DNA of 59,809 nucleotides, filler included, from Sphacelaria rigidula (taxonomy: Eukaryota): the NCBI GenBank assembly GCA_964200075.2. It is 5 parts of 5 records of this genome, joined end to end, with 100 filler letters (N's around TTAATTAATTAA, not from the genome) between each part and the next. Parts side by side here need not be neighbours in the genome. Positions count along the whole stretch, not along the records: positions 11,984 to 23,865 come from CAXNAA020004381.1; 4 more parts are not named here. One strand, given 5' to 3'. Position 1 is the first letter of the stretch. The number at the start of each line of letters is the position of its first letter. Shown here piece after piece: positions 1 to 43,071 of the stretch. The notes beneath the pieces were generated by a model that did not search any database, had not been told where the DNA came from, and saw only the letters and a program-made list of their open reading frames with translations. The translations under genes and the position numbers were made by a program.

Positions 1-256
1 CCCCCCCCCCTTCCGAAAGGGATGCTTGGGCAAGGGTCAAAAAAAAAAGGGAAAAAACAAATGGGTCCCCCCCCCCCCCCCCCCGCGCGCGCGCTCCCTT
101 TCATCCATAAAAACGTTGGTGGTGAACGCGATAGTTGGAGTTGGCCGTGCTCGGCTCAAACCATTCAAGAGAAGTGATTCCGACGGAAAGGAGACTCACC
201 TACAGCCCATGCAGAGCATGCACACCAGCATTCACGAAGAAAAAAGCGCGATTTAA

Positions 257-3128: not shown

Positions 3129-6100
3129 GACGCTATTTTGATTAGGGTGGCTACAACAATCAAACAGTCGGCGCAAAATCACAAAGAAACGCGGAAGCTC
3201 ATGAAGAGGATGCAGGAGCACATTTCACCCCCCCAGGGCAGCCGCGACTGTGGCGCCGGTGGTGGTGGGTACGGGGGAGGTTTTTTTGATGAAGATGCAG
3301 GGGTACACGGGGACCCACAATACGGCACGCCAGGCCTCGTGAAGGCAATCTCCGAAGATGTGACCACCGAGATCCAGCGCCTGTGTGCGGGTGCGGCGGG
3401 GAAGGAGAACGATCGCTGCGCGGAGTTGGACGGTCTGCTCCAGGAGGCCTATCGTCAGGTAAATGTTTGAGAAGAAGATGAAACAAAAGACTTGTGAGCG
3501 ACTGTGGGCGACACGCGTACTCCCCGCAGATTTGGATGGGTAAAACTCGCAGTTTTCCACTGTCAGATTCTGATTATATCGGCCGTGAACAGACGGCGTC
3601 TTGCATGATATATGCATGACCAAATATTGAGACCGGGTGTCTACAATTGATGTCTGATAACTCCCGCGCCCCAGTGGTTTAATTGGCACAACGGCGACCG
3701 GTTAGGGTCCAAAGCCGTGGATTCGAATCCTGACGAATGCATGTGCTTCTTGGCAAAAGCTGGTTCCACCGCTGAAAGCGTGAAGACGTGACTAGTAAAA
3801 CCTTCATTTGATGAGAGTGGACGTGGCGCGGGAGTGTTAATCCGACCCTCCATACCGAGATGTATGACAACTACCAGGCGGGGAAGGGGGGGGTGTAATC
3901 GTGATCATGCATGCCTTAGTCACAAGACCATTGACCTCCCATCCCTACAAAGCCGAGACGGAGCCCGCCGCGTTTTCGCCGGACCAGACTCGCAATCAAT
4001 CACCAAGCGCGAAGCGCCGTGATGTGTTCGGCGAGTCGCGTGAAGGGTGAGCTGCAATCAAAGCTTGTTCGACTCGAAGCGTACTACTTGTCTTGAGTAT
4101 GGATGACAGCCTCGAATGAACTGATCTAATTTTTGGTATCGCCACCTCCAGACTTACCCACGTGTTGCACTGCCTCATGGATGTCTTCCCATTCGAACAC
4201 TGCGTGGTATGATAATCCCCTTTGGTCGGAGATGGGTTCTCCATCCCGCACAATTTGACCTAGTTCGATCACCATCATCGTTACCGGAAAAAAACGCAAG
4301 CGGGAAAGGAACGGGAACCTGGTTGCCCAGCTTACGCAGTGAGCGGCGTGTTTGACAGCGTCATAACCAACCGACGCCAACCCTTACCACGTGGGGGGTG
4401 GGGGTGGGCGTACTCATTTGTTGCTTGCCTTAGTCCTTTGACCATTGACCACGCTTCCCTTTCGAGACGGAGCACGTGGGGGGGTGGAGTTGGGATGAGT
4501 TTATCCGTTGAAAATACGGACTATTCCCAAGGAAAAGGAGGGTTTGAAAGTACAACAAAACAAAACCCGAACCCAGTTGACACCAATTCGTGCGAATTCT
4601 GCTTATATTATATAGGTCAGAGACTGTGAATAGCTTAGTTCTGTTTGTGGATGGTCTACCTCTGTTCTAAGGGCTTCGCCTTTTATGACGCACAGATGAC
4701 ATGAAGTATAAGTTTCCACACGTCGGACGAGTCATTACTCGTCGAAAAGAGTGCACTCGTGGATGTTTTTTAAAACGCAACGAGCATAACTCGTGTGCTC
4801 GAGTCATTACTTTTTTTTTCAACGAGTAATGGCTCGAGTGCTCACCCTATTAGTTTGTCTCCACAACGAGCAATGACTCGAGTGCTCGCCCTATTAGTTT
4901 GTTTCCACAACGAGCAATGACTCGAGTGCTCGCCCTATTAGTTTGTTTCCACAACGCGCAATGACTCGAGTGCTCGCCCTATTAGTTTGTTTCCACAACG
5001 AGAAATGACTCGAGTGCTCGCCCTATTAGTTTGTTTCCACAGCGAGCAATGACTCGAGTGCTCGCCTTATCGAACCCTTTCGGGACCGACTCCCCACTAA
5101 CACGGGGTTGACCACGTGTTACTGAAATAATAAAAAATATGTCGGTGAGCGACCTACCCAATCACGGCGAGGCAAAATGTATTGACCAGAACCGAACGAT
5201 CAGCGCGGAGACTGTTGTCGAGTGTAATGTCACTGCAAAGATCGTGTGGGGCCTAGAGAAGCCTTCCCAGGTTTTTAAAGCCAGGATACTCGGAGCATGG
5301 CTTATCGTATTATTGCATTCAGTATAATGTAGCGTTCCCAGGATTTCACAGGAGTTTTCTTGGGTCGTCAGCCTATCCTCAAACGTAATAATTACACTAA
5401 CAGTGAGTGGGAAACCCGGGAAGGAGTGTACATGCCACAATGTCGTCATTTTCACGAGGCACCAAGCTCAGGTGGACCGTGGAAAGACGAAAGGAGCTAC
5501 CGTCATGGATTCTGCTTCTCCCTCTGCCGATGACTTGCAGAACACTGTGAACATGTGTGTAGTGGGCGGACATGATCAGCCTGTGTATAAGCAGCTGATC
5601 TCCGTCGCTGAGAACTGCCCAGAACATGCAGGGGAGTATGCAGCGGCAGCTGCTGCTCCAGTCGGAGAGGCGTACTGCACTGTGCTGTACTTCATGTATA
5701 TGCGCCGTAATGCCCATACCCTTCGAAGAGAATTTGTCGCATGCAACAAAGAGGGAAATGGCGGCTCACCCCGACCACAAAGGGCTGTGCGGCAAGGTGA
5801 TGGGGACGATAACATCATCCAAAGCCACAAGTGGCGGGCGGTCCGCCACTCACCGCATCCTGTTGAAAGCTGTCTACGGCGACACATACCGCTTCCTAAA
5901 TCAGATGTACGTTACCTAATGCGCACCCTGCACCCGAAAATAGATTGGATAAAACTTTCGGTATTCCTGATAATCCTGCGCTTACATACGCGGATTTTCA
6001 GCAACATTCCTTTGTTTCGTGCAGACGCCAGACACGTCATTCCTAACTACCCTCATTGGTCGTTCTGGAGGCCCGGTCCCAAAGGGGTTAATTTTTCCAC

Positions 6101-11800: not shown

Positions 11801-11883
11801 GCCGCCCCCCCCCCCCCTCTGTGCTCCGTCTCGAAAGGGATGCGTGGTCAATGGTCAAATGACTAAGGCAAGCAACAAATGAG
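11801..11883 (+). mobile_element. Short poly(C)-tailed retroposon cut by contig end
   Basis: C-run followed by gtgctccgtctcgaaagggatgcgtggtcaatggtcaaatgactaaggcaagcaacaaatgag. Confidence 0.7.
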
Positions 11884-11983: not shown

Positions 11984-12989
11984 GTAAAAATAAATAAAAC
12001 AAACCTGGGGTTTAAGCGTAAACAATCCAGTCGCTCTTGCTTTTATCCCTGAGTTCTGATTTTTCTTTCCGAAACTCTCTATTATGTCAAGCCTTTCGTA
12101 GCGAAACGCTGATAAGCCCAACATTACGGCAGTCGCCCCCGTGAATAGAAAAGCTCACGGGTGGTTGAACATCAAAGCGTTTTTTAAGCCTCGATCCCTC
12201 GTCTCCCATCACCCGATTCCCTCCTTTGATGGGACAGGTTGTCTTTCTCAGAACCAGTTGTGCTCGCTGAGCGCTACAGTTTCGCGTGATGAAATGGAGG
12301 TCAAATGTGCAAACTCTAGCTCCACAGACCTGTGACGTTCGTTACCATACATAGGACTACAGAGGGGACTCAAAACCGTTTGAAAGAGAGAGAAATGTCC
12401 GGCGAAACACTGTAGCAGAATTTGAAAATCTGAGAGGAAAATACACGGGCGTGCCTTTAGTACCGATAACGGCGCCACGCTGTTTTCCACGTCAATATGC
12501 ACCTAACAGTGTTGCGCCAGAAGTAAAAAAGAGTCAAGTGTGTGTCGATTTTCGCATATAAGAATCATTGTATACATTATCAGCAGGGATCATCCTCGAA
12601 GTAGATGTAGTCCACATGAGCCAGGTACCCCAAAGGGAGGAGCTGCGACCCAACACGCGGCATATCTGAAAAGCTATGAAGGCTGTATCGTCGGCACAAG
12701 TTGCAGGCTGAGAATGTGATTATGTCTAGCGTTCGGTAGTGTGCATGGTGTTGCTTGGTACCGGTGCCTTGCGGGCCCCATGGTACGACGATAGGTGGCA
12801 ACCACTACAAATGTTCCAGCGTATCACCACGCCTAGGGCGTAGTATATGGAGTGTGCAATTCGCCTGCAAGAACAAGCATTTCAATTGCTCTCCAAGAAA
12901 ACAAGAACGGCACGATCGTTTGCATGCATATCTGGCGGCGCAGGTGATGACTTTGAGATTTGAAAGCTCCTTCATGACCACTATAACGA

Positions 12990-13660
12990 CAGTACCCGTA
13001 CCGTAACACTGCGTAACCGCATCTGATATGTGGCGTAACCAGGGCGTAACCGCGTCTCGTGTTTATTTGGATCATTTCCTACCGTAAACTCTCAATTTCC
13101 AGTGCAACTTTGCAAGGTTGTGTTTTGTAGGATACGGTTTTCTGTATACCCGGGGTATTTTTCCGGGTATTACCGTACCCGACACTTTTATACCGGTACC
13201 GGACAGTTCTGTAGAGTCTGTAAGACTTTCATACCCTTACCCGATAGTTCTGTGAGTTCTGTAAGCCTCCCGTACCATTACCGGGGGCACGGGTATTGCC
13301 TTGATAAAGTACCCGGCTGCGGGCACGGTTTTATGTGCAGCCTCCATACCCTGCCCGACAGTTTCTGTGAGTTTTGTACGCCTCCCATACCCTTGCCCGA
13401 CAGTCCTGTGAGTTCTGTACATAATGTATGCCAGTACCCGGAGCGCGAGTATGCCCTTGAAGAAATACCCGGTTGCCGGTACGGTTTTCTGTAAGCCTCC
13501 CGTACCTTACCCGACAAGTTTTTTCAAAAAGTGTGAGACTTTCAAACCGGTGCCCGAGAGTTGTGTAATTTCTGTAAGCCTCTCAGACCTTTACCCGATA
13601 TATCTGTAGATTCTGTACGAATCCCATACCCTGGAGAACATAGCCGTACCCCACAGAAGA
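12990..13660. repeat. Degenerate short-unit repeat block, probable non-autonomous transposon
   Basis: Recurring ttctgtgagttctgtaagcctcccgtacc and cccgacag motifs. Confidence 0.5.
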
Positions 13661-14682
13661 CAACCTTGCAACTTTGCTTGTGGATTTCTCGCCTGCGACA
13701 GCGTGTTCCATAATGAAACTTTGCACCCTAGTCGGACACAACACAGACAGCATACGCGCAAAGCGCCTGCACGATTGGGCCCCATACTTTCTCGGGGACT
13801 ACCGTCGATGCGCCCTCAGATCGGCTATCCCGCAGCCCAGACTTCGTGCACTACAGACGGATGCATATATGCACGCCCAGATGCACAAACTTCGACATGT
13901 TGAGCGGCTGGGCGGCCGATGTGGTGGCAAACTGACACCGGTCTGCACTGCAACCCTTTCTCGATAATGACCATCTTCAGTGTACCGATCGGCATACAGC
14001 CTGTAGAGCTGCGCAGTTCATGGCGCACGGCCCTACGCGCGCTGTAGCCGCCTCGAGACGCTGAAACTTCGCTCATATGTTGTGCGAACCACAGTCGACA
14101 GTTCCACGTCGCTATATCTGGTGCTGTGCGCTGCAGCAGTGCGCACCAGAGGGAAAAGCGGTCAGATTCTGTTCCGATGTTTACTCTCTTTTTTTTTGCT
14201 TTTGGCGCAACACTGTTAGTAGACAGGTAGTGCTGTGCAGTAAATTCGCGGTGGCACAGCAGAAGGCGCCAATGAGTGCGGATGACAGCCACGCAGGTTT
14301 AGCATCCCCTCATCTTGAGGTTTTGCGCCGTGTTATCATGGATGTGTTGCTCTACGGAGAGAGGGCTTACGTCTCTTTGCGTAGGTTGAGCGAGACTCTT
14401 TGCCATTCAGCGTTCAATGGTTGAAGGACATGGGAAGGATCAACTACGGGGGAGGTTACAGACTCGAAGGACTCCAAAAGTTGGATACGATACTTGAGGG
14501 TACTGAACTTTTTCATATATTCAGTGTTCTTACATCATGATGAATCTTGCTCGGTGTAATGTTTTGTTACATGAAACTGAAGTCATCTACAGAAGGACAT
14601 CGCGAAACGTTAACCACTGGCTCGTGCAGTATTTCACGTAGTTTAACTTCAGAGTATTATCCTATCGCCTTATACTGCTGTG

Positions 14683-17600
14683 ATGTATCTGCAGCTGGAT
14701 GGAGTTGGTGCTGCTGCTTGGCACGGGCAAAGCGACATTAGCCCCTGGCACATGCAGTTTTCACCTATCGGGCGAACCTCCTTCGGGGCGACTGTAGGTC
14801 CAGTGGGATCGAGCGACCGAGACGTCGTATGGGGGTCAACGCCAGGGGAGGACTGTCAGGAAAGGTTCTTCGCGCAGACGGTAAGATGAACGGGGATATT
14901 TCCAGCACATTGTGGACTTGCCTCACCGACTCACCCCTGACAGAATGAGGACTGGCCACGAGAAGAATGAAACGAACCAGGGTCATGATCCAAATCACAC
15001 CCTCCTAGAGGAGGAATTGTTGAAGTCACCTCAACAGTTTGTGCTAGAGAAGTTGGCGTGTCTGCGTGCAGGGATGCCATAGCGTTGTGTACTGACATGT
15101 CTATTTTTCGTGTCGAATAAAAATGGATCTGGAGCGTGGACGGCAGCTCCTGTATACGCCCTTGCGCCGCCCACATCAGCTGATATTCAAAATGCTCATG
15201 CGTGTGTCATCGCCCACCCCAGACACACAACACACACAACCTCGAGAGTTTGTGCCAGAGAAGTTGGCGTGTCTGCGTGCAGAGATGCCATAGTGTTGTG
15301 TACTGATATACCTATTTTTCGTGTCGAATAAAAATGGGTCTGAAGCATGGACGGCAGCTCCTGTATACGCCCTTACGCCGCCCACCCCCGACATCCCAAA
15401 ACACCGGTCGTATCATTCAGCTTGATCACTTCCGCCATGTGCCTGGAGCATCCGAGCCGACGTTCCAGCAACGATACTTTCTGTGTGACGAGTTCTGGCG
15501 CCCGGCGAGAGGAGACGGGACAGATGGAAGTGAAGCGGATGGGCGCGGCGGAGAGCGTGCCCCGCGGGGCGCCAAGGGTCCAATATTTTTTTACGTGAGC
15601 AATCGTAGCGAGTTTGAGGAGAGACCACGCTGTACATCTGTGGTGTTCGCTGCCTTCCTCATGTCAAAAACCGCCACCTTTGTTAATTGGTCCAGGAAGA
15701 ACTCGCCATGAACGGCGTGTCACAATTACACGGATACGCGTCCCTTCCAGGTAGAGGTTGTGTTGTTACATTCTTACCCATCTTGTCTTGTCCCATTCTT
15801 ACTCGCCGCGTGTTGTTGCCGTTGCAGTGGTCACTGTCCATACGTTTTACGGTTAGGACGAATCATCACGGGTTCGAATCACCAAATACACGATTTCTTC
15901 GGCCTGATTGCCGAAAAGGGAGAAAAAAATTGACCGCTGGTCCAAGGGGTATTTCACCCAACCTTTTTGCGCCCTTCCTCGTGTCTGGGCTGCATGTACC
16001 TGGGTTGCAACGCTGAGAACAAAGCCTAGGGATTGATTCGTGCGATTCGAATCAATGACACTAAAACCAAGTAATTTCCAGGCGAATCATTGATTTGTCC
16101 GACCCTTGATACGTCTCGTCGAATTCCACTATCTTGATCTTTGACCGATAAATTTAAGTCATTTGCACTCGAACAATCGAAATCACAGGCTGGAAACGAG
16201 GCGGACGTATCGCTGTACCTCTCAGCCACTGGTCTGATGTGGGAGAACGCTAAATCCTTCAACGCTCTGTTGGTGTTTGCGGAGCATCGGTTTTACGGAG
16301 AGTCGCTCCCTTTCGGCGCTCCTGATGAGGGCCGAGAGTACCTCAGGTGAGGTCCAGTAAGTGACCTTTTCAATCGTCCCCAAAGCGCCGCATTGGGATG
16401 CTAGGTTCTGGTCACCCAACTGTACGCTTTGACGCTTTGTCCACGGACACCGTCTGCATATTTCGGCATACTCTCATCATGACACACACGAGCGCCAACT
16501 GTAGGTGGTGTTGAATAGCTATATTGGATGGCCTTGCCGACCGACTGAAAACACAGCGAGCACAGAAACAGCTAGGAACTGTTCCTGTTTCACGTTGTAG
16601 GTAATTCAGCAGAGATCAACGTCAACCCGTGCTGCACATCAAATCATCGGGATTTCCCACACTCGAAAATTCTCGGGCGCCCGAACTCTTTCTAGCCGGA
16701 CTGGGGGAACTACTACGGCATCCTTTCTGGAGATACCCAAGATAAGGTTCCGAAGGTGCACGGTGTTTTCGGCAAATTTGGGGTGTGTGCCGATTGTGCA
16801 GACTAAAACAGGACTGCCGCGCCGCAATGGAGTGCACGCCCTGGGCACAATATTTTATCTTACATTTTGTGTTATTATTTTTATCATCATTATTATTATC
16901 ATTATTATAATAATAATTATTATTATTATTTTTATTTTTTTATTATTTTTATTATTTTTATTTATTTATTTATTTATTTATTTATTTTATTTGTTGCACT
17001 GTGAACCCCTTCCCTTCCTCGGGACGAGTCCGTGGTCTCAAGGGATCATAACCCATCTCTCCCCGGTACACGCCTTACATTTTGGTGTCGCGGATTGGGT
17101 CAGCGCTCCCGCACCGCGTCAACTCACGCCAAGCACACTGAGTCAACTACTTTGTTTTCTCACGTTCTCACGTTTGCCACGGTGGGAAGCAGATACTACG
17201 AAGAAAAAGCCCAACGCATCGGGAATCGAGCCCTCGTTCTCTCCACCCTAATGGCGACAGTCGGACCATTACACCACCAATATATATATATATATATATA
17301 AGACAGGCTGTCTTCGGTGTTGGCAGGCACGTTCCCCTGGGACGGTTTACTCGAGAGGTGTGCGTAACAGCGCGGTTGCGGAGCGTGTTCAGCGAAAGTA
17401 ATGATACAGCTGGAGGAAGCGGAAAGTATCGACAGATGTAGGCAATCCCGTCAGCATCAACCGAACACTCCGTACAGACGAGATTAGGCTGGGAGCGATA
17501 CACAGCCGCAGCAGCCAAGGACCATACCGAGCGAAGAAAACGCTGTCGCAGCCGTATCGTAAACTCCAGGGTGAAAGCATTCGAGACTCCTGGAAGAAGG

Positions 17601-20600
17601 GACGCGGTGGATAGCCGCAGATTGACGCATATCTATGCAAAACTCGTTGCGGCTACACGCGCAAAGCACCAGTGTGTGCGCTCTCTCCGCCGCAAGCGCC
17701 CACCCCGTTACTTCGCGCAGGAAGAGATGCGCTCTGGGGCACTGTTCCATCACAGCTATCTCAAGCTTCCATACCACGGGGAGAAAGAACGGAAGTTATC
17801 GATAGGTGTGCACCCTTCGCCTCCAAGTAGTCGCCCTATACGCGGCAATATATACCCACAGCTTGGCGCACAGCTACGGGGCAATAAGCTTCACGGATGC
17901 AAGAACAAAGCAGCGACGCCGATGTACAAAAAACGTGTAGATATGGTATATCGCCAAACGCATTCAACTCATTTTCGGTACGCATGCACTGTTCATTTTT
18001 TTTGGTATGTTCGCAGCACACCGCAGGCACTTGCTGACTACGCCTTGTTGATAGGAGCTCTGAAAAAGGAACTAGGTGCAGAAGACTCTCCCGTGATTGC
18101 ATTCGGGGGCAGCTACGGTGGTATGCTCGGTGCGTAGGGGGGGGGGGGGGGGGGGGTCCTGTTTTGTTGTTTGCTTTGGTTGTTTGACTGTTGACCACGC
18201 ATCCCTTTCGAGACGGTGCGTAGGGGGGGGAGTCCAGTCATGTTTTGCGTTCGATTTGGCTTCTATATTGTGGATATATTGGTGATATTACGGAATTTTG
18301 AGGTTTTGACACGTGGATAGGACTGTCTACAGAGAACGGTCACTTGATTTTTAACGCTGCAAGAGTCAGCGAGTACACTTTGAGGATACGTTTTTGTGCG
18401 GTGGAAAAGTACCTGAATGCACTTTGAGGGCGCAGTGGTATTTTACTCACGGTTCATTCCCTGCCTTGTCCGTAAACCCGCTTCGAAAACCTGAACCAAA
18501 CCCCGCGCCCCCAGCTTCGTGGCTCAGGTTAAAGTACCCGCACGTCATCCACGGAGCTGTCGCAGCTTCGGCACCTGTTTTGGCGTTGGAAGGCGAACTC
18601 CGGCCTCCACCAGACCCTGAATCCTTCGCTGAAACTGTCACTCGCGCTGCGGGACCCGCGGGTGGCGCGGCGGAGGCTTGTGCAGCAAATGTTCGACGCG
18701 CATTTTCAACGGTATTGTCTTCGGAGCGACCAGAGGTGAGACATCCACAGGGCTGCTAAGCAGCGTCTCGTAGGACTCCATACTTTCAAGCAACGGTACC
18801 GTGACATATGTTTTCTAGACCCCATCAAACGATGACGCAACATCGAATTCAGTCGTTGAGGGTCAGCGTTGCATAAGGGATATCGCGCGATGCAGTCATG
18901 TTTTTCAGTTTCACGGAAAGCCATGGCCAAAATAAAACCGGATGACTATCTTGTTTTGCTAACAGAACGGGAGACATTGCAATTCTACTACACGACTGCA
19001 CCGCTTCCTCCCTTTCATCCCCTCCGATACAGACGACGACACCAGAGGATATTGCACGGTGGTTGCGTGTGTGTCCGGGCGAGGAGCCAGAGGAAGAAGG
19101 CAAGTACCCCCAAACGGTCGGATTTGGGACCAGTCGCATCAGCATCAGGGCTTGAGGTTTTGGACTAGGCACATCGTCGTGTCCTTGATGCTGCACGGAT
19201 TGCAGTGGCGCAGCTTTGGGAGGAGGCTGCGCCGCAACGGATAATACGTTGTGCCGTACCACCCTTAGCCCTGGTGCTCCCTATGAGAGCACACACAGAA
19301 AACAACGCGCACTGCACTTTACTGCACCAGAATGAACGGGGAAGCGGGAGTTTCACCTTCAGCTGTCGTTTGTGTATCGGTCATCCGATAGGACGACTCT
19401 GGACAAAGCACATGTGGGTCACTCCCCTAGTCCAGAATACGCTCATTGCAAGCCGCTTTTGCTGCTGATGCTGCTCAAGTGTTGAATAAATGCTGGTCGC
19501 TCGGACTCTCGTTTTATTCGTCGTTGTACGCGCATGGACTCGCGACACCGCAGGCGCGCGCCTCGAATTGGCATGGTGGGCGCGGTCAGCTTTCGACTAC
19601 CTGGCAATGGGTAACTATCCGTACGCAACAGGTTACATCCTCAACGATGGCGACGGGCTCGTAACGCTGCCACCTTGGCCACTGAGAGAGGCGTGCGCTC
19701 ACATGGCAGATGCTGAGGTAGGTTGTTTACTGAAATTCACTTGCTGCCATCCTCATGGTGGGATGATCGTTGCATCGTAGCTACGCCTGCGGTATTGATC
19801 GCTTCTGTGTCGCGGTCAAGTGGTACAGATTGCCCCGCAATAATGAAAATGTTCTGCCGCTGTCACCTTCCTCCGCCCTTTCTGCCCCCCTGATAACACA
19901 AGTTAATCCGTGGTGAGACGATGAAACGGCATGGTATAGGCATCGGTTGTCGCGCGACCCTGACATCATTCCCTATGCCTCTCCCCTCCCCTTGGTATCA
20001 CTGGAGTGATGCGCGTTGACGCGATGAAACAACACTAAATGCGTCCCTTTAAAGTGGCAGATCTCATGTTGTCTCGCACACACACACACACCACGTTGCA
20101 AGTCTCAGGATGGTAGATTCATATTTGTACTGAGGTATATGCCCATTTGTTGCCCTCCCCTCCTCTTCGGATGTGATTCACCACTTGCAATACATCAGGT
20201 GCACCCGTCTCCTCTCGTTCGGTCTCGCTCGCTGTAGTGTCCCCGACCTGTTTCCCACCTCCCCGCCGCGCCATACAGAACCTTCCTGATGTAGTCAGCA
20301 GTTGCAACACACCATCCACGTGACCCGAGCTGTGCCTTGCTAGCTTCGTCTCGGTTGCCACAAACATTGCCATGGCGGCGGCACCACGCTGCTCTGTCAA
20401 TCCCAATACTGAGTTACCTCACGAATCGCTCTCTGGGGCCCTACCGCTTTTGGCCGTCTTTGTAGTGCAAATAGTCTCGTCCCGCATTGATTGCACGCGA
20501 GACGGGATTCAAGCCGTCAATCACGGTAGACTTGTCAATCGTTGTTTTCCCCCCGTTACTGCCCGCCCATCCCCCGACCTCAGATGGATGGATACGTAGA

Positions 20601-22742
20601 CAGTTGGGTGGGCGGATAGGCAGGTAACAAGGCAGGTGGGAGGAGATACGCGAGGCAGATGGACAGAGATCGGTGGTTTTTTGGATACGTCCCGGCTCCT
20701 GCACCCCTGATTCATCCCCCCTGCCATATCGGCCCCATCTGTACCCCCCCCCCTAAAAATTTTACTTTGTACTAATAATGAGAGCACATCATCGAGGGTA
20801 GTGACTTCACGGGTGCTTCCTGGTCCCTTCGAGCGTCGAGGGAGCGGCAACGTTGTGAAATGTCAAACATAGCGACTTTCATCTTGATCCAGTAATCACC
20901 CTCTTGCGCTGTTATTACATGAACACCGTATTCATTTTGCACAAGATGAGCGGCGAGGAAGCTCTGGTGAGCGCTCTTGCCGATGCCATCGGGGTGTTCT
21001 ACAACGCCACCGGAGACTTGGAGTGTTTTTCCCCTGCTGCCGGAGCCAACAATGAAACCACAGTAGATGGGAACAACTGGAACTGGCAGGTGACTGATTA
21101 TTCTTGGGCGATCTCATCTGCTGACCTGTTATGTCTTTTTTTTCCTGATTTGAGCGACTGGTCAGTGTCGCGAGTAGCGATTTCTGCTGTGCTGCATCAA
21201 GTCTCGCAAGGAGTGTCTACAGTGATACTCGGGGTGATCCGAAAAATCGGTACCTTGTCAAAGTCACAACTATATTATATGATATAAGAATAATGACACT
21301 TCGCCTTCTCCATCTCCTGCATGCTCACGTCCAATTATGTGAACATCGTGTACTGAGCGTCCGTCCAAACGCGCGTTCGAGAAGGAGGTAAAACCACTCC
21401 GATGATGTGGCCTCAATAACAACGCTGATTTTTGTCGCCCCGCCCTTCTCCCGCTTTCGTCGACCATGTTGATATTCTCACACCAAAATCTTCCCTCGGG
21501 TGTACGCCCGGATTCAGGCATGCACCGAGATGTCGATGCCGATGTCAACCGACGGTGTTCGTGATATGTTCTGGAGCGCGCCGTGGAATCAACTGGAGCA
21601 AGACGCTAGTTGCATGGAGCAATTCGGCGTGTCTCCCCACGAAGGCTGGGGAGCGGTAGAGTACGGGGGATACGACGCGTGGTCTCAAGGTAAGTCTGGG
21701 TAAAGATATGTGGTTGTGAAACAGAATGCATTGTGCAAGTTTCCTCGGTCTTGCAGGCCGGTAGCGTAACACCTGGTTCCTCTACGTGATATATTGTTGA
21801 TACCAATAGTGAGACTACTCATGTTGTATTGGACTTGACCGTTTTGTGCCTCCCCCGGAATACGGAACTCTGTCACGTTTTCTTCCATCGACCCCTGATA
21901 ATTGTGATGCTCATGATAATTGTGATGCTTAGATATGATGAAAACATGAACAACGTTTTTCAATCCGCCGCTTTTCGCGTAGTAAGTTGCTCACGTGCTC
22001 CCCGCGCCGTTTTTGTGTTGCCGCGCACAAATAGTAACGAATGTGGTCTTCAGCAACGGGAAGCTGGATCCTTGGTCCGGCATGGGGGTGCTGGACGCAA
22101 AGCAGGCAAGTACGTGACATGTCGCATTTCCATGTGTCCACCAAAGCTCAACATTGATGCGATGTTCTTGCCGCAGACTTCACTGGTCGTAGACGAGACG
22201 TGCTCTGCTGTGCATGCGACGAGCTCGCATCGAGAAGTTGCCCCTCGGTGTGGAGCGTGCTGGGTCGACATGAAAATGCCAGTGGCTGACACGGCAGGGT
22301 AAATATATTTCGTACGGGGCGTTGCACGAGATTCCGCCCCCGAGGTTACTGCAGTGCCATGCTTGCGCGCATTCTTGTTATATAGTCCTCTGTATTCCAA
22401 AAGCGCTGGTTGAGTTGGCCACCTTTATGTAGTGACTTTACGATCAATTGATTATCAATCTTTCTGTGTTTTTTCCCATTTCAGGCTGGTCCTGGCATCG
22501 ACATCATCATCATGGACCAAGCCGCACACCATCTGGACTTGTTTTTCCAGCACGACTTGGATCCCGAAGAAGTTCTTCAGGCACGCCTGAAAGAAATGGA
22601 TCTGGTGGAGGACTGGGTGCGAGATGGATACGCTGCCGCTGCTGCTGCGAGGAGCGAGAATGGCGACAAACGGAAGCGGCCGTGGAACCCGACTGTGCAG
22701 AGCCTTGACCGTGGAAACATGGGGTTATTGATGAACGGGTAG
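14683..22742 (+). CDS. PRCP: Serine carboxypeptidase S28 (lysosomal Pro-X carboxypeptidase/DPP7-like); exons 14683-14880, 15421-15594, 16189-16346, 18017-18129, 18515-18735, 19033-19099, 19554-19717, 20946-21089, 21518-21689, 22035-22105, 22485-22742 (~579 aa; start uncertain)
   Basis: Spliced frame gives [39 protein letters not shown], catalytic GGSYGG, RLKYPH, AMGNYPY, WQACTE, NGKLDPW and AAHHLDL. All intron phases are compatible. Confidence 0.92.
15035..15385 (+). repeat. Direct duplication of ~140 bp (period ~210 bp) in intron
   Basis: gtttgtgc(t/c)agagaagttggcgtgtctgcgtgcag..cgccgcccac occurs at ~15037 and ~15248. Confidence 0.85.
16860..17280 (-). mobile_element. Full-length tRNA-derived SINE with (AAT)n/(AAAT)n tail
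   Basis: Minus strand reads A-box tggtgtaatgg, B-box-like ggctcgattcc, ~250-bp body, then an A-rich microsatellite tail (16860-16990). (AT)n at the 5' side. Confidence 0.7.
18128..18230 (-). mobile_element. Short poly(C)-tailed retroposon with TSD at an intron donor
   Basis: cggtgcgtagggggggg occurs on both sides (18128.. and 18214-18230). G20 tract at 18137-18156. Core ttgaccacgcatccctttcgaga. Confidence 0.8.
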
Positions 22743-23590
22743 TTGTTTTAATCTATTTCAAGTTTTGGGGGCTTTTTTCTGGGGAGTTACGTAGTTGTGG
22801 TGTGTATGGTAGTGGCGTCTCAACGGGGTTTTTTTTCCTGGAGGGCTTTGAAGTTATGGTGTGTCCACTGGCGGCGGCTCATTACATCAGTCATTGAGGG
22901 TTATAGCTTTTTGTACATAAAAGAACCGCAGACGAAAGAGATTCGTTTGCGATGCGCCCTCCGTATGCCATGATGTGAGATCTAAATAATGCGTAGTAGA
23001 TGTGGAAGTGCACGGCCTTTGTTACCCCGCGTGGTTGCGGTTGGATCCTCCGTTCTTCGGGGATTGATGGATGCAGCGCGCCACCCACTTGACATGTCGT
23101 CTCGACCCGAAGAAGTATCCATATATATATATATATATATATATATTGCATATTTGCGCATATTTGCTCCCAACAACCATTTCGCCACATCAAGTGTCTA
23201 GCAGTTGATTGAGAGTGAGCTTGTCAGCCCATTACCACTTGGAAAAAAAATGATGCTGATTCCGCAAACGGACATGGAGCGTCGAAGGGTGCGTGACCCA
23301 AATTGCGAACGTTGGCGGTCAAACCGCTAACATTCCGAAGCGTTTGTCGTTGGGATATCATTCGAAAGCAGACAGACACCAACATACGACTCTTTGGGAT
23401 CGCGATGGGTCAACACCCGACACTCGCGTCCAATGTATCAACCGGAAGAAAAAATATCGGGATGCATGCCATTATGTGCGACGTTGTTAGGGAACCTGAT
23501 CACTGTACGACAGCGCGTTAATGAGAGGAATGCACGATGGTTGATATCCTCCCTTGTTTTAGTGTTGAACAAATCGCATCGGTTCCTATG

Positions 23591-23865
23591 AACCCTTTCG
23601 GGACTAGACCTCCAGAACGACCAACGAGGCTGGTAGGAAATGATGTGTCTTGCATATGCATGAAACAGCGCTGGCTTCATCTTTGCTAGGAACCAACGTA
23701 TGTATGTAACGGCAGGGTTAGATGAAGACCGAAAGTTTCATCCAATCTATTTTCAGGTGCAGGTACAACCTGTCTGTACTATAATTCGGGTGTTGTGTGC
23801 ATCAGGCAATGTACAGATGTATCAAGCAGTATCAGTCGCAGTGGAGAGCTTTCAGCAGGATGTGG
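23591..23865 (-). mobile_element. End of piggyBac-like element (family of 5075-6087), cut by contig end
   Basis: aaccctttcgggactagacctccagaacgacca.. aligns to the reverse complement of ~5855-6089. Confidence 0.6.
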
Positions 23866-23965: not shown

Positions 23966-25119
23966 CCCCGAAAAGGAGGGGGGGTCACAGGTCAAAACCC
24001 AAAGGCAAAAAAAAAAAAGGACCCCCCCCCCCCCCCCCCAGAGCGCAAAACACCTTATTTTTGTACGTTTGGGTTCGTTGCGGCTCAGTATCACGCTCAA
24101 ACAAGAACGTGAAATGAGTTGACCTAGCTTAGGTGCGTGGGAAGCGCACGCAAGAAATCGCAGTCCAATCCTCTGCTTAGTCACCGAGTTCTACGCGTTG
24201 CGCGATTGACACTTTTGAGTTGAGGATTAGTCGCGCTATTATAATAGAGGCCCAACATAGCAAATTAAAAAACAATCGGTGCGCATATATTGTTTCCTTG
24301 CTGCAAGCAAGTTGTCACGACATAAATTTTAGTTGCATGCCGCCAGGCACTGCTCCTTATAATTCTGTGCGGCTGTGCACCAAAGGCAATCCCGCCTTTC
24401 AACAGCGAGTATCCATTCAAGTGTCAAATTTCAGAGGGGGGATTAACAGAAGAAAGACAAAGCTAGCGGCTGCTTCGTGTCAGGGCTCCAGGGCAGAAGC
24501 CGAGGCGTCTAGAGCGATTGAAGTACGTGCACTACCTTACATCTGCTGGCGACACATTTTTGGTTGTTTCTGACACGCACGCGGCCGCCATTCGTCCAAT
24601 ACAGAACGGATCTCCGTCAAACAAAGACTGCCATGTGTAGATTAGCGAGGGCTAGCAGTAAAACTAATGCGCGTGAGTGATGGGTGTCGGTCCGTCTTTT
24701 TCGTGGATGGGTGTGTAGGTGTTGTGTTTCCTTGTTGCGTGATGTCTGTACCATTACACAGACCTTGGCCCTGCTTGGACTAACGACCACTTCCACACCC
24801 GCCTCATTTTCACTACTCGTGCCGCCACTTGGATCGCCTGTACAGCACACAGCCACAACTGTGTACAGACAGCGTGGTGTCTTTACAACAGCAGTGCAGC
24901 AACAGCATAATATGGCGGCATTCTCTATTCTCGATGGCAAGCAGCTGATGCATACTGTATACAGTCCGTGTCGTCAGAGTATCCATACAATCGAGCATGC
25001 GTGTACTATACACGGCCGTATAGCAAGTAGGGACACTTGTGAAATCACACCATCAATGTACTACAAGTACCGTTGTCTGCTGTCTGCTGTGCAGAAATAC
25101 TATGTGCAGCGGACAACAG

Positions 25120-27175: not shown

Positions 27176-28446
27176 TTAAGCCGGTTGGTTGTTTTTCGTT
27201 GCCCCCACAACACCCTGAAATGTCACCAGAACCGTTAATGGCCATGTGCGCTACCTCCGTTGATGGTAATGTACATGCCTCTGCAGACATTGATGCTTGC
27301 ACGGTCGTTGACGGCAAATCGCCGAACTCGTCGGTGGTCGGACTGCCGGGGGTGATGGTTCCAAGCACCACGCGCCCCGAGGAGGCCCGTTCCGCCAGTC
27401 CAGCAAACACGATGACTACTCCGGCTGCGACGGCCATCGAGGTAACGAAACCGTGTACGGTGGTGGCAAATGAGTGTGCACTTTTTGAAAACACCTCTGT
27501 AAGGGTTGACAAACCTTGTGCAGTAGTCTTTGATGTGGTGGAACATATCCGTCGACTATCGGACTCCTGTCGCATGCGAATAGATGCCGAGTGTTGGGAT
27601 TTGACGCCCATGAGGGAGGTCGCTCATGCAAGACGGTCGCGGCGCCGGGGGGGGGGGTCTACACCCCCATTCCGTCGGTTCTGACGAGGCCCATGTTGGC
27701 TGATGAAGAAAGCAGAGAGGGTAAATCCATCCTCGGCACAGTGGCTGCTGTAGCTGGAGTTGATAAAGGGCGCGCGACTTGCGTTGAGCGGTCAAATCCT
27801 GCAAGTAGTCCGTCCTCCCTAGACGGTCAGGACACGGACGGAGACGAGACCCTCGCTCGGGGGTTGCATAAGGCCGAACTCCGTGCGGCGGCTCGTAGGA
27901 GCAGACAGTTAGCAGCGACAGTAAAGAAGGATGAAGCCCTGGCTAAACGGCTTTCTGAAATTCCAGCTGTCGAGACCGCTCGGGCAGCCAACCCCGCCAA
28001 GCCTGTCGCAGTAGTTAAACAGGAGGCTGACAGAGAGGGGCAGTTGGGAGGAAAGACATCGCGGTTATATGCGCAGGCAGTGAAGTCAACCCCCGCTGCA
28101 GCCAGCAAACCAACTCCTGTGTCTTTGCTTCCAATGTTTGCGTTCCCCGAATTACTGTCTCATACTGCAAGACGCGAGTTACGTGCGGGCGGATACAACT
28201 TTCATGCGACTAGAGGTGGCGGGAGAACTGGTGGGGGGTCGGAAGGACCTTTAACACGGGGCCGCCGAGATCAAAGTCGGGCGCACCCTTGTGGGAGTGG
28301 CTTTTATAAAACGACAAGGTACGACTCGGAAAAAGCTGGTGTCATGGGTTTGTTGGTGAATTTTACGGTGGAACCGGGAACCACTTTTGCAACCTATTCA
28401 TCTGAGCTGAGACTGTTAGTGGCGAACGTGCAAAGATTGGTCTTTC

Positions 28447-28732
28447 CTGTCTTCACCCCCGCGAGTCACTCTCTCACCTTATGGTCCTTAGTTTCTCGTT
28501 TGATGATTGGTTTTGAGTACTTTTTGTGGTATTATAGTGCAACGACATCGGGGCGTCACTAGCAATATACTCAAGGAAGAATCAAAAAGCCTATTTTCTC
28601 ATCTTGGCATATCAGTGCTCTCATCTCTCTTGGATTGTGTTTGGAAAAGATGTCTGACCTTCATGAAAACAGTCGAACCTATATTTGGGAATAGAGCGCA
28701 GACTTCTACCCTGACAGTGGCGTCGACGGCAG
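28447..28732 (+). repeat. Internal copy of the last ~270 bp of the LTR plus PBS
   Basis: Matches 25570-25839 and is followed by gTGGCGTCGACGGCAG. Confidence 0.92.
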
Positions 28733-31700
28733 TACCAGCGACAATATCTAGTCAGGTAGCGCGAGGAAAGAAAGGTAGGTACTTGGAAGAAATTAACCAA
28801 GTACTGAGAGGGGAAGTGAGTTTAAACCGCAAAGAAAGTTCGACTATGGCGCAAATATTTTCTGGCCCAAAGGCAACAAGAACATTAGGGGTAAAGGCTT
28901 TGGTGGACACAGGGAGCCCGGCAACGTTTATTCATTACTTAATATGGAAGAAAATGGTTGACGTTGGAGCAGCCACCATTGAAGGCTTCCGAGAGATAGA
29001 CCCGGTATCCTGGGGTGGTTTTAATGGTGCCCCGTTGTGTATTTCTTCACAGGTGCGGTTGAATATCAGACTGTGGCCTCGAAGACCCAACTCACGAATG
29101 TCAGTTCAGAACGGGCGAGCATGTTTAGCAATTTACGCCCATGTGGTACCTGATGGAACAATGAATTATGACATTCCAGTAGGACGTGATGGCCTCGGAT
29201 TATTTCCGGTCAGAACGTATCGTGATATAAACCGGCGAGAAACAGGAATGACCTTGCAAGGAAACAACAGTGACTCTGTTGATCGTGCGTTTGTGGAACA
29301 AGTCCGCACGGCTGGTGGTTTTATGGAGCAGAAATCGGCAGTTATGGTAGTATACAATGGGTCTCATGATATGATACAACCGGATACATTGTCATGGATT
29401 CAGGTAAAACTATGTAACATGGACGGAACGCCCACCAAAAGTGGCTGTTATTATGTATCTCTGGATCCAGATTGGTCCCCACATGAGATTATCGTAGAAG
29501 CAGGTGAATCCATTATCCCTATCCGTTATACCGGTTTAGAAGGACAGATGTTGCATCCGAACCACTCTAGGTTCAGCGGGGGCACCTTTGGTACCATGCT
29601 CTCTGGAGGATGTTAAGATTTCTGAAACAAAGAATCTGAAACCCGAGGCGATATTGTTAACCAAAATTTAGAGGAACCTCCGGTTTTGGCAGGTTTGACA
29701 AATGAACAAAAACGAGCATTCAAAGATATGTGGGTGAAGCTTCCCGTATATATGCGAAAAATAAAGTTCGGGTTGGAAGGCGCACATTGGCCAGTTGAGG
29801 ACATTGAAAATTTGGGTGAATGTTTGTGCAAATATTGCACACCTTGGACAATATATGGTCAAAAGTTGCAATAGACAAGAAACATATTGCATAAAGTATA
29901 GGCCTGTTGCATCTATTGACCATATATTGGCCAAGGTGTGCAATATTCACATCGATTTTCAAAGGACAAGATGGATTTTGGGTATTGCACGGTGGATCCG
30001 TTTAGGATTGGCTCAAACCGGGGACAAGGCCTGTCAAACAGCGCCCGTATCGTCACAACCCGGCGGTTCAAAAGCAAGTACAAGTGGAAATTGACCGCAT
30101 GCTCGCAGCAGACATTGTAAGGAGATCATATTCCAACTGGAGTAGTCCGCTCGTGGTTGTGAACAGAGCGGATGGGTCCATTCGAATCACGTGCAACTAC
30201 AAGAAGCTAAATGACAGCACAATAATTCCGGTGTTGCCCATTCCGATTATTGAGGAACTTTTGGATGAATTAGGGGGTGCCAAAATATTTTCATGTTTGG
30301 ACATCACTTCGGGTTACTTTAATGTGGCTATACATCAAGACTCAATCCTGTTGACGGCGATTTGTACGCAGAGCGATCTCTATGAATGGTTAGTTATGCC
30401 GATGGGGTGCAGTGGAAGTCCAGGTTGGTTTCAGGCAATCATGGCGAGAATATGTGATGGGTTGAAACGATGTCCTCTATATATTGATGATGTGTGTACG
30501 TTCAGTGGAACAGGTAGACAACATGTAGATGACTTGGAGGGTCTGTTTCAACGACTGACCAAGTACAACCTCAAGTTGGCATCGAAAAAAGCACATGTTG
30601 GGATGAAATAAACAAAATTTCTAGGACATCACATATCGGCTGAGGGAATTTCTGCTGATCAGGACGAAGTGCAGGCTTTAATCAAGATGCCAATGCCAGC
30701 CGATGTATCTCAGCTCAGATCGCTTCTGGGAGGATTGGGGTACTACCGTAAATTCATTCCGAGAATGGCTGCGAGACTCAAACCTCCCACGAAATTGTTG
30801 AAGAAGGGGGTTAGGTTTCAGTTTACTCAAGAACACGAGACGATAGTCAAGGAGATGCTATCATCCTTGACCAGTATGAACGTTTTAGCATTTCCGAACT
30901 ACGAAGATGCGGCGTTGGGGGAACGCCCATTTATGCTCACCACGGGTGCATCTCTGGATGGTCTGGGCGCGGTGGTGGAACAACGCCAAGAGGTGACACA
31001 GTTCGACCTCTTATTTTTCTTAGTCGAGGAACACTCCCGAACGAAAGAAATTGGAGTGTGTCCGAATTAGGGGCAGCGGCTATTGTGTGGGCTATCAAAA
31101 AGAACAGACTACTTTTCTAAGGAGTGCAGTTTGAAATCTATACTGATCACCAACTTTTGCGAAATTTATTGAGCCTTGCAGAAAAGGTTCCGAGAGTTCA
31201 GCGCTGGCACGACTTTTTAAGTGCGTACACTTATGAAATGAAGTACAAGCCAGGACGCGTGAACGCGAATGCGGATATGTTGTCTCGTTTACCACAGCCG
31301 CCGAATGATAATGATATGTCTGGGGATGCCCGAATAACGGACCCGGGAGACACGGATGTCTATTTGATTGGCGCTGTTGGAATATGACCGAGAGTTATTC
31401 AAAACTCGACCAGGGATGGACATGTAGGGTCGGTAGTGAGTACCTATGATTCAAACTTGAATGGGCTAGACCCTGGATCGTTTTTTCAAAATGAAGAAAA
31501 AGAAGGAAGTGCAGTACCGCTCACGATCTCTGAAAAAGTTGACATAAAATGGATCGAGCTACACAGAGCGAGGGATAGTATTAGTACACGGGTGGAAAGT
31601 GGAAAAGTGAACAAGTCTTCGTACGTGAACAAGTCTTCGTACGTGGTACAGGATGATACACCATTAATTTCTCCACAGATTAGTGACATGACCAGAGGAC

Positions 31701-34080
31701 AATGGGAACAAGGATTGACTTTGAATGCATGTCCGATCACGGAAGTTGGAAGAAGGCTGCTACAACCTCAAGAGCATAGAGCCGTGTTGGTCATTGAATC
31801 CACGACCAATGAAGGAAGTAGTAGTGCGGGGCCAATAACAACGGAACCACCGACTCTGGAAGCAGAAGAAGCCTGTCATTTTGGGGAACGTTTATGTCAG
31901 AAATCGGCAAACGATTGGGCTCAAATACAGTAAGAAGTTGTCACGTCGAGAACAGCCATCGAATATTTAAAAAACAAGTGACAGTGTTGACTAGGGATCA
32001 AGAAAAGGGGCTTCCCACACGAACTGACCTATCCGAGTCCAACAGATTACTGAAACAGGGAACACTTTTGGAAGTGTCGGACGGAGGTGTATTATTAGTA
32101 AAAAAGCAGACACCAATGCCCAGTCAACTGGACCGAAACCCGGGACAATATGAGAGGTATTTGGAAGAAGAGCCAACCAGAACGTATGTGTCACTGCTTT
32201 CGAGGCCTTGGGTAATGGATCAAAATCACATAGAAGCAATTCATTTGGGCGAAGGTATCACGTTATCTTTGTTGAAACGGTATTACTGCTGGATTGGGAT
32301 GAAGGACAGTGTTGAATTTTGGATCAGGAGATGTTATACATGTCAAGCTCGGAAAAATCCAAGAGACACAGTAAGGTGGCCACTTATTTCCTTACCACTG
32401 CCGAGTCAACCAGGGCAGATGGTTTCGTTTGATTTGTTGGGCCCGTTACCAAAATCAACGAGGGGAAATACATGCATTCTTTTGATGGCGGATCTGTTTA
32501 GTAGACATGCGGAAGCGTATGCTCTTACCAAAGAAGAGAAAACAACGGAAGGTTGTGCGAATATCTTAGCGCACGATTACATCCCGAGATGGGGATGTCC
32601 TCACACTTTATTGTCGGATCGAGGAACGGAATTTACAGCAAAAGTGGCAAGAATAGTCCATGAGGTATTGGGAGTCGTGAAACGATACACGAGCGCGTAT
32701 TATCCACAAACTAACGGGATGGTGGAGCGACTGAAACATATGCTATGTCAGATGCTGTCGTACCTAGTGGCAGATGACCAGAAAGACTGGGACAAGCTAT
32801 TGTTACACGCAATTTCTGCACATAACAACAATGTAAGTAGAGGAATAGGGTTAGCGCCGAACGAGGTGCATATCGGAAGATATATCCAAGGTTACCCATG
32901 ACCATCCTAGAAAGAAGGGGTGTGGTAGGACACCAAGGACTGAAAGCGGACCAACTCGAATATTTGCAGTTGATGAAGGATTGTAAAACCAAAGCATACG
33001 ATCTTGTGACACAAGAGGACTTTCTGATAAAATCCAAACACGAGGCAAATAATGAGCAGGTGGAAGAAGTTCTAAATCGAAAGCCAAAGTGGGAGGTAGG
33101 AAATTGAGTTTTTGTGTATGACACCATGGGTACTATCATGTCAGGGGGAACTGCGGTACGCGAAGGCGGAAAAACAGCTTTATCGTCGAAACTGTCACAT
33201 TCCTGGCGAGGGCCATATCAAATCTTGGTGATGGGACCAGGTAGTTCGGAAAAGGGTGAGCTAGTGGGAGAAAAACTACTGTTACTTGAACTCCGGAAAA
33301 ATGAGCCAGGAGTAATCATGAGTCCCCGAGTTTCTCTGTTGAGATATAAGCGGTGCTTCAATCCAAAAGATGAACCGGAGCCGCCGAAGTCCCTACCCTG
33401 GGGTTTGAAGCCAGTATGTCTTGAATCAATATTCGGAACTATCACCTCCGCTACATTCAAGAGAGGAAGATGTGTCGACACAGCTGGACACGTATAGGCT
33501 GAAGCCAAGAAAAGATTGCGAGTCACCGTGTATATCGTGGTTTGGGGGGGGAAACTCTCAGTTCAGTATCTATTATATTGGGAGAATTTGGAGAGGCCCA
33601 GGTGGGAACATGAGGAGGACATGAAACAATATGGACGAGTAATTTTGACGTACTGGATAGAAATCCCAGAATGAAGAAGCCAGACAACTCGAAGTACCGA
33701 AACTACTGCATAAATTTGTCAAGACGAACGGAGGCTAGAGAACGGGGAGAGATGTTTGTGGCTCAAGGCTATGAGTTGAAAAGCAATGTCACTGCTGGTC
33801 ATCATGTGTATGACCCGCAAATTTTCGGTTGTAATATATTATCGAATGCAGACAACAGGATGGCTTCTAGCCCAGATGATGGGTCTGCAAGAGGATGCGG
33901 TGTTAGAGGGGCGCCCGCACACTTCGAGGATGTTGGATCTGGGAAAGACGTACAACGTTCACCTCTCACCAGAGAATTTGAACGCATCGAGGAATCAAGT
34001 GGGGGATTGGTGCTGGCATGTTCATGTGCAGCGCGGGACTTCAAAATTCTTTGCGCATACGCTGTTGCTGGAACGCTGGA
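28733..34080 (+). pseudogene. pol: Degenerate gypsy pol: protease, RT, RNase H, integrase, chromodomain-like C-terminus
   Basis: LVDTGS; WSSPLVVV..NYKKLN, LDITSGY, MPMG, YIDD; YTDHQ, NANADMLSR; C-x2-C, DLLGPLP, SDRGTEF, PQTNGMVERL; WRGPY. Many stops and frameshifts. Confidence 0.92.
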
Positions 34081-42753: not shown

Positions 42754-43071
42754 CTGATTTTGTTCGTTGAAACACGAGGGGGGCGGGGGATGGGGGGGGG
42801 GGGCGTTATGCAGAGACAACTACAGCGGACAAGTATAGCCGAAACGTGAAACTTTTCTCTGACAAAATGCACACGACGAGGGTTGGGGTGGGGAAGAATT
42901 TTCCCGAATATTTGAAACGTGCTTCAAGTAGGGTAGGGTACACAATACCCGTGAGGACTCTCGTATACTGCAAATTCTATCTGCCGATAGTCGGTCCGGC
43001 ACTGGGTAGATACCCTGGCACCCTGGAGTATACTCCGTGGCCCGTGGCGAAGGATAGATAGTTTTATCTTT

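Follow-up and report, generated by a model that had tools for sequence, protein, structure and literature searches.

C-tailed repeats at C/G runs of Sphacelaria rigidula as probable insertions of a non-LTR retrotransposon and its non-autonomous relatives

Introduction

Short repeats that end in a run of C and are flanked by direct repeats beginning in that same run raise the question of which element they derive from and how they came to lie at such sites. We analyzed this question for a stretch of 59,809 nucleotides (nt) from the draft genome of the brown alga Sphacelaria rigidula (GCA_964200075.2), in the following called the window, starting from the copy at 18128–18230. In an initial annotation, this copy had been regarded as a poly(C)-tailed retroposon with a core of ~70 nt, forming a family of its own that inserts at C/G runs. 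As detailed below, the core is the truncated 3′ end of an autonomous retrotransposon without long terminal repeats (LTRs), i.e. a long interspersed nuclear element (LINE). We consider it quite probable that the repeats are insertions of this LINE and of non-autonomous relatives, generated by target-primed reverse transcription (TPRT) from a nicked G run paired with the oligo(C) end of the RNA.

Sequence data

The window comprises five contigs of 11,881–11,883 nt each, separated by N44-TTAATTAATTAA-N44 linkers, and has a GC content of ~50%. Four external loci (L001–L004) were used for comparison, three of them obtained by a 23-mer scan of metagenome contigs and the fourth (L004) by a protein-guided scan of genome contigs; viral contigs yielded nothing, neither with a DNA pattern nor with protein- or alignment-based scans. 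The evidence from public runs (X1, X3, and X4) consists of assembled contigs only, which were compared with the N-free contig 11984–23865.

The insertion at 18128–18230

The copy from which we started is composed of the following parts:

18157–18213, minus strand: body, 5′-truncated LINE 3′ end of 57 nt, corresponding to the last 19 codons of the LINE reading frame (16 of 19 identical)
18145–18156, minus strand: surplus tail of 12 C beyond the flanking repeat (20 C on the 3′ side versus 8 on the 5′ side)
18128–18144: 3′-side copy of the 17-nt target-site duplication CGGTGCGTAGGGGGGGG (plus-strand reading)
18214–18230: 5′-side copy of the duplication CGGTGCGTAGGGGGGGG, 100% identical

The architecture first described for this copy was thereby recovered on the minus strand in all its parts, namely direct repeats of 17 nt without any mismatch, a body of 57 nt, and 12 C in excess. 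The insertion is antisense and intronic, 8 nt past a Peptidase_S28 exon. The duplicated 17 nt at 18128–18144 include the end of this exon together with its splice donor GTGCGT; by duplication of both within the repeat, two identical splice donors are now found 86 nt apart (18120–18230).

The body matches the LINE unevenly. While the 24 nt at its 5′ end are all identical to the LINE consensus, the 36 nt adjoining the C run (18157–18192) differ from it at 10 positions, comprising four G>A and three T>C exchanges (seven transitions) and three transversions, and both the stop codon and the subsequent GTACG of the LINE are altered within 18157–18213. Possible causes of this divergence are an assembly error, editing, or old mutation.

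An autonomous LINE with the repeat at its 3′ end

In the external contigs, the repeat was found at the end of long open frames, which extend over 1253 codons in L001 and 1382 codons in L004; in the best tblastn segment, the L004 frame is 95% identical to that of L001. The LINE has a length of ~4.6 kb and a single long open reading frame (ORF) for an apurinic/apyrimidinic (AP)-type endonuclease, a reverse transcriptase (RT), and a C-terminal Cys/His knuckle, the latter spotted as a motif in the translation of the frame. The RT domain RVT_1 was detected with E-values of 7.7e-33 in protein P0035 and 6.7e-32 in the L004 ORF, hence in the external contigs L001 and L004 and outside the window. For the endonuclease, Exo_endo_phos scored E 3.1e-11 and Exo_endo_phos_2 E 9.2e-07. 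All three domains were past the curated Pfam cut-offs in both contigs. The closest solved relatives of the RT are R2 and L1 ORF2p, and the ESM Atlas gave only generic RVT/Exo_endo_phos clusters, and no clade. The closest named relatives of the LINE are found in Ectocarpus with 58–71% identity, which also applies to an integrase of the gypsy type encoded in the window; relatives from Ectocarpus and metagenomes together range from 38 to 77% identity. The genome bin holding L004 contains only that one copy.

The ORF ends with TGA, followed by the 5 nt GTACG and then by a C run, which reads C8, C11, CCT-C7, and C13 in L001 to L004, respectively, and continues in each case into an unrelated flank. 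The short copies of the window represent the last 19 LINE codons plus the stop codon, with tblastn identities of 84–100% at four window sites, so that the proposed ~70-nt family had to be given up in favor of truncated LINE 3′ ends. As the direction of the ORF fixes the sense strand, the homopolymer is an oligo(C) at the 3′ end, and the opposite orientation with an oligo(G) at the 5′ end is excluded.

The 5′ terminus of the LINE was placed with the help of a derivative at 40131–40441 of the window (see below), since its first 80 nt match L004 527–606 with 82.5% identity. Next to this terminus, L004 445–527 holds a fragment similar to the LINE 3′ end in inverted orientation, and G-rich strings at ~421–432 and 5168–5180 of L004 resemble each other. 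The 5′ junction of L004 may represent an inversion-type insertion or a nested copy.

Further copies in the window

Twelve copies were found in the window. Eleven of them have their 3′ end inside it, in each case with a terminal C run, and the remaining one is interrupted by a contig end. Besides the one described above, the copies are:

4388–4487, minus strand: short LINE 3′ end with C-rich tail and the duplication CACGTG-G6/G7-TG (13 versus 14 nt), body running from 4472 to 4409
11805–11883, plus strand: C13 run, 6 nt, and short LINE 3′ end, 3′ flank lost at the contig end
59714–59809, plus strand: C9 run, ~18 nt, short LINE 3′ end, and start of the C tail, cut by the contig end
38112–38283, minus strand: longer 5′-truncated LINE 3′ end of ~160 nt with C10 tail at 38112–38121, 5′ limit approximate
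37815–38110, minus strand: 5′-truncated copy of a long form with C12 tail and duplication, body running from 38096 to 37836
38296–38771, minus strand: long-form copy of ~470 nt, non-coding, ending in ...GAGTACAC..C8, with a C-rich stretch upstream of its 5′ end
3886–4385, minus strand: long-form copy of ~500 nt, ending in ...GATTACA-C8
40131–40441, minus strand: internally deleted derivative with the flanks CGAAGCG(A/G)GGGG (12 nt, one mismatch)
1–84, plus strand: error-laden short copy at a contig start, consisting of C10, body, and C18
23966–24039, plus strand: error-laden short copy at a contig start with C18 tail
35948–35990, plus strand: last ~24 nt of a copy and C19 tail at a contig start, weak assignment

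The copies can be grouped into short 5′-truncated ends (57–88 nt), one end of ~160 nt, a non-coding long form of ~500 nt, and the internally deleted derivative. A 23-nt core occurred five times in the window, each time with at most one mismatch (up to three being allowed), versus no occurrence in each of 100 shuffles. Bodies from 57 to ~285 nt and the full-length copies of ~4.6 kb share a common 3′ end and differ in the extent of 5′ truncation. At 11821–11883, the sequence is identical to L004 in 63 of 63 nt.

The copies at 4388, 37815, and 40131 had been taken to share the architecture of that at 18128. Flanking repeats of 12–14 nt are indeed present at all three, but the copy at 37815 belongs to the long form and that at 40131 shares only the last 27 nt and the C run with the short copies. 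The C runs noted a few nt upstream of the copies at 11801 and 59711 were confirmed as C13 at a distance of 6 nt and C9 at ~18 nt. The noisier sequences at 1–84, 23966–24039, and 35948–35990 were counted as copies as well; they are located exactly at contig starts, with the assignment at 35948 being weak, and all three probably reflect low-quality contig ends.

The long form is related to the LINE by its last ~90 nt, which are 71–75% identical to the short LINE ends and terminate in ..TACA-C(n); near its head it contains an internal T7 run. As the C tail is common to the LINE ends and the long form, it has been kept across subfamilies that are ~25% diverged. In the derivative at 40131–40441, the LINE 3′ end is represented by the final 27 nt, which share 89% identity with the short copies, and by the C run. 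Its 5′-terminal motif (GATATCTGCGTAG.GC, plus strand) is repeated internally, at 40236–40251 and 40415–40430, and part of its body resembles 57297–57413. The derivative may be a composite made by template switching.

Target-site duplications and C/G runs

For the copies at 18128, 4388, 37815, and 40131, the duplications have lengths of 17, 13/14, 13/14, and 12 nt, with non-homopolymer parts of 9, 5, 9–10, and 6 nt, respectively. They begin in the C run, merge with the tail, and reach 5–10 nt past the homopolymer. At 37815–38110 the flanking repeat reads GGAGGACG(G)AGGGG (13 versus 14 nt), with a surplus of C12 at 37824, and at 4388 the surplus C are found as CCCACCCCC ahead of the repeat. The 4388 duplication seems to begin 2–3 nt before the C run (CCA-C7), and consequently the nick would not lie strictly at the edge of the run. 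Terminal inverted repeats (TIRs) were not found at the ends of the four copies tested. The claim of variable-length duplications fused with the tail thus held, with lengths of 12–17 nt, an extension past the homopolymer, variable 5′ ends, and no TIRs. A DNA transposon was ruled out because of the missing TIRs, the variable length of the duplications, and the encoded RT.

Copies and long homopolymers are closely associated in the window: 13 of the 18 C/G runs of at least 8 nt adjoin a copy on the correct strand, either directly behind it or within 25 nt of its 5′ end, while sequence near copy ends makes up ~1.2% of the window. Provided that C runs serve as the target and that each insertion ends up between two of them, older copies would be hit anew, and head-to-tail clusters would result. 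Such a cluster is formed by the copies at 38296–38771, 38112–38283, and 37815–38110, which follow each other in succession, each beginning at the previous tail, with the last one inserted in the tail region of 38112–38283. Similarly, the copy at 4388 sits in the C run immediately upstream of the long-form copy 3886–4385, and in L004 the LINE tail is followed by the head of a long form.

The same data allow the question of whether the C run belongs to the element at all. In an alternative that we regard as rather improbable, the RNA would end with ...GAGTACG and at most 1–2 C, the endonuclease would be specific for C/G runs, and the C found behind each copy would be duplicated target sequence, lengthened later by slippage of the RT or during replication. 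Homopolymers are prone to slippage, and the surplus of C varies from ~1 to 12. The copy at 40131 fits this alternative best, with a C run almost wholly covered by the 12-nt duplication; as only ~1 C remains beyond it, part of its apparent tail is target sequence. Against a LINE lacking its own tail, the surplus C are confined to the 3′ side in three of the four copies with clear duplications (18128, 4388, and 37815), and all four external copies carry at least 7 C straight after GTACG at unrelated sites. Moreover, a donor transcript reading through its own tail would carry those C anyway.

Short copies and the 3′ end of the ORF

Most copies terminate ~57–88 nt ahead of the 3′ end, at a point directly preceding a small GAAA-loop hairpin. 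The starts of the short copies fall within a span of ~25 nt and differ in the base of GTGCTCCGTCTCG at which they begin. The GAAA hairpin is the sole structure supported by the alignment fold, and this weakly. The stretch forming it is the most conserved one and encodes the peptide G(C/R)VVNG, which is kept near the C-terminus of relatives (P0036–P0071) down to ~38% identity; in LINE relatives, the ORF stops 6–9 residues after this peptide. Its conservation suggests a deeply kept RNA signal at the 3′ terminus, located within the ORF, across this group of LINEs. The hairpin is probably the signal by which the RT recognizes its template, i.e. an RNA signal inside the end of the ORF.

The short copies can be interpreted in two ways, with their non-identical 5′ ends favoring independent truncation and their tight clustering favoring a discrete unit. 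In the latter case, the copies of ~60–90 nt would be a self-propagating miniature short interspersed nuclear element (SINE), the masters of which are transcribed by read-through and recognized via the 3′ hairpin. The 5′ ends fall within ~25 nt in four of the five well-read LINE-derived copies of the window and in two classes from public contigs, the GAAA hairpin is kept in all clustered copies, and the summed depth is very high (see below). On the other hand, the ends are at different bases of the GTGCTCCGTCTCG motif, as independent truncations would give, and the copies are plain ORF sequence with neither a tRNA, 5S, or 7SL head nor an Rfam match. We therefore judge a miniature SINE unlikely, albeit less so than a LINE lacking its own tail; it would alter only the source of the template and not the mechanism.

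For RNA-derived parts, Rfam yielded no match at the gathering score in the window, none at E ≤ 1 in 3800–4600 and 37700–38900, and in L004 only a sub-threshold match to Ocean-VII. ARAGORN called no tRNA in the window. With both searches negative, there was no sign of a ribozyme or of any part derived from tRNA, 5S, or 7SL RNA.

Public contigs and assembly quality

The junctions of the 18128 insertion recur in public contigs. The right junction, comprising the 5′ end of the element, the duplication, and the unique flank, is present in contigs of X1, X3, and X4, and the left junction in those of X1 and X3. X4 stems from a different study, shows many single-letter differences, and has no cover at 17542–17938. 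None of the contigs listed for X1, X3, and X4 spans the whole element. Contig breaks are found at 18154 and 18193, and 34 letters do not match.

The sequence of this copy is very highly repeated. In X1, the summed word depth of its bin was ~219,600 versus ~65 in neighboring bins, i.e. ~3,000-fold, with similar results in X3 and X4, summed word depth not being equivalent to copy number. Two further classes of copies in the public contigs have a G run 6–8 letters beyond the same 5′ end.

Copies are also frequent at the borders of the assembled sequence, as 5 of the 10 contig ends of the window (at 1, 11883, 23966, 35948, and 59809) are located inside element copies. The fragmentation of this draft is thus in large part due to the element. 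Together with the error-laden copies at contig starts, this could also be read as a sign that the C/G homopolymers are sequencing or assembly artefacts, either of the poly-G type or from chimeric joining of repeats, the more so as some high-copy repeats in the public contigs join 21-letter G runs that are possibly artefacts themselves. We regard this explanation as highly improbable, because the succession of ORF end, GTACG, C run, and unique flank is shared by the window and four contigs of different assemblies, the duplications contain unique sequence on both sides, and the 18128 junctions are present in contigs of three runs from two studies.

Neighboring repeats and other C/G runs

Several other features of the window were recorded. 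Two C/G runs, at 20744 (C10) and 27647 (G11), are not tied to any copy. At 42780–42900 (minus strand), a C12 run (42792–42803) lies behind ~66 nt unrelated to the LINE end, and the flanks contain the similar C-rich strings CCCTCGT(C)GTGT and CCCTCGTGTTT; here, the same machinery may have mobilized a different RNA or a further LINE family.

At 16860–17270 (minus strand), there is a very highly repeated element with a tRNA-like head recognized by eye, for which ARAGORN and Rfam gave no call, and an (AAAT)n/(AAT)n tail at 16860–16990. If this element is real, a retroposon with an A-rich tail coexists with the C-tailed one. A second repeat of very high depth is located at 15850–16110 (plus strand). 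In the public contigs, a 21-letter G run is joined to two repeats, one extending to 16106/16108 and the other to 17047/17048; such joins could be artefacts or other C/G-run junctions.

Furthermore, 27500–33000 and 43700–45300 contain a Ty3/gypsy-type element with RVT_1 and integrase on the plus strand and, on the minus strand, a fragment of the copia type with RVT_2.

Discussion

With an RT, an AP-type endonuclease, variable duplications without LTRs or TIRs, and a common 3′ end, the element is a LINE of the AP endonuclease (APE) type. It has no L1-like poly(A), as its tail consists of C5–C20 and its duplications start with C runs, and it has no pol III-type head (tRNA, 5S, or 7SL) as expected for a SINE, the short copies being ORF sequence. 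The idea of a non-LTR machinery using an oligo(C) tail at G/C runs, put forward in the initial annotation, was thereby substantiated with regard to the machinery by the LINE encoding APE and RT.

The poly(A) of L1 is added post-transcriptionally, and we know of no poly(C) addition comparable to polyadenylation. Hence, the C tail would be encoded by the template or made by slippage. In the mechanism that we propose, the transcript would read into the C run behind its own genomic copy and thus acquire a template-encoded oligo(C) end composed of donor tail and target C run. The endonuclease would nick the opposite strand within or at the edge of a G run, and the freed oligo(G) 3′ end could pair with the oligo(C) and prime reverse transcription. 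A second nick 12–17 nt away would give rise to the duplication, and slippage may add further C, varying the length of the tail.

Several points weigh against this interpretation. The sample is small, consisting of one 59.8-kb window and the four external contigs, and we infer the oligo(C) end of the RNA, the limits of the transcript, and the nick site from assembled contigs. An empty pre-insertion site was not present among the 15 joints listed from the public contigs, which contain 353 further ones. The three older copies (3886, 38296, and 38112) have no convincing duplication, and judging from the copy at 40131 a very small number of C contributed by the element itself may suffice. In L004, the full-length copy has no C run at its 5′ junction and adjoins the inverted 3′-end fragment instead. 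The consensus fold of ten 3′ ends gave a weak hairpin (−3.95 kcal/mol, 8 pairs, 2 of them with compensatory changes), and the 36-nt divergent stretch together with the contig breaks may indicate assembly errors in the 18128 copy.

The proposed TPRT from an oligo(C) end can be compared with the insertion of known retroposons. Human L1 and Alu use an AP-type endonuclease and RT, their variable duplications merge with the homopolymer tail, 5′ truncation is frequent, and the target is complementary to the tail. The LINE described here resembles them in all these respects, including the complementarity of target homopolymer and tail. In contrast to L1 and Alu, the homopolymer is C/G instead of A/T, there is a single ORF, and the 3′ untranslated region (UTR) comprises just 5 nt. 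Kinship to L1 ORF2p concerns only the RT core (E 3.6e-21) and is similar to that with R2.

Non-A tails made of simple repeats and a shared 3′ end are known from stringent LINE/SINE partners such as eel UnaL2/UnaSINE1, zebrafish L2, CR1, and the I factor. Similar to these, our element has a non-A tail of variable length, as slippage would give, and a 3′ end common to the LINE, the long form, and the 40131 derivative. It differs by its mononucleotide C tail, the position of the conserved 3′ signal within coding sequence, and the weak support for a stem-loop. Microsatellite-targeting LINEs, in which the tail equals the target, have been described in the R1 clade (Waldo/Mino) and the Tx1 clade (Kibi/Koshi). 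Equality of tail and target is also seen here, as are insertions that cluster in simple sequence and lengthen it; unlike in those elements, the target is a homopolymer down to 6–8 nt, scattered in genes and introns and not in long arrays.

RTE and RTEX elements have very short 3′ UTRs, a habit of spawning SINEs, and tails of AT-rich short repeats. Like them, our LINE has a single long ORF for APE and RT and a near-absent 3′ UTR, is heavily truncated at the 5′ end, and is abundant in brown algae, whereas its ORF is longer (~1330–1380 codons) and encodes a C-terminal Cys/His knuckle, and its tail consists of C instead of AT-rich repeats. One distant match of the LINE protein is named 'Craniofacial development protein 2', presumably a name linked to RTE-type elements. 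Membership in RTE/RTEX, hinted at by the near-absent 3′ UTR and the name of this one match, is a lead only. From kelp and Ectocarpus, LINEs of the Jockey, RTE, RTEX, L1, and CRE types have been reported, with no mention of their tails in the parts of that paper used here (PMC4421812). 'Sower', reported as the most abundant unclassified repeat of Ectocarpus (PMC3145265), could be related to our element. A literature search found no description of a poly-C tail on a retrotransposon, although a report in print may have been missed; the portion of PMC5381506 considered here concerns internal tracts of 3′ UTRs.

Beyond the insertions themselves, a wider picture can be drawn, which we offer as tentative and hold to be less probable than not, though not by far. 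It would comprise a lineage of LINEs with a wide distribution among brown algae and in DNA of marine eukaryotes, in which the logic of L1 has moved from A/T to C/G and targets are chosen largely by pairing between the template-encoded oligo(C) and the nicked oligo(G). The cis signal for the RT would reside in the last ~20 codons, and a minimal mobile unit of ~60–70 nt, present in very many copies, would have given rise to the majority of the long C/G homopolymers in the genome and be able to duplicate splice donors in introns.

Conclusions

The machinery of the element is ordinary. What is unusual is the combination of a homopolymeric C tail with a matching G/C-run target, an ORF reaching to within 5 nt of the tail, and dominant copies of ~60–70 nt. 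The element thereby provides a natural control for the TPRT model: if pairing of tail and target, and not the specificity of the endonuclease, drives the choice of sites, a C-tailed LINE would be expected in G runs, as seen here. For the host genome, most long C/G homopolymers of the window and half of its contig breaks are due to this element, which builds head-to-tail clusters by targeting its own tails again. Finally, 'unclassified' repeats of ~70 nt in brown-algal assemblies may be the 3′ end of this LINE.

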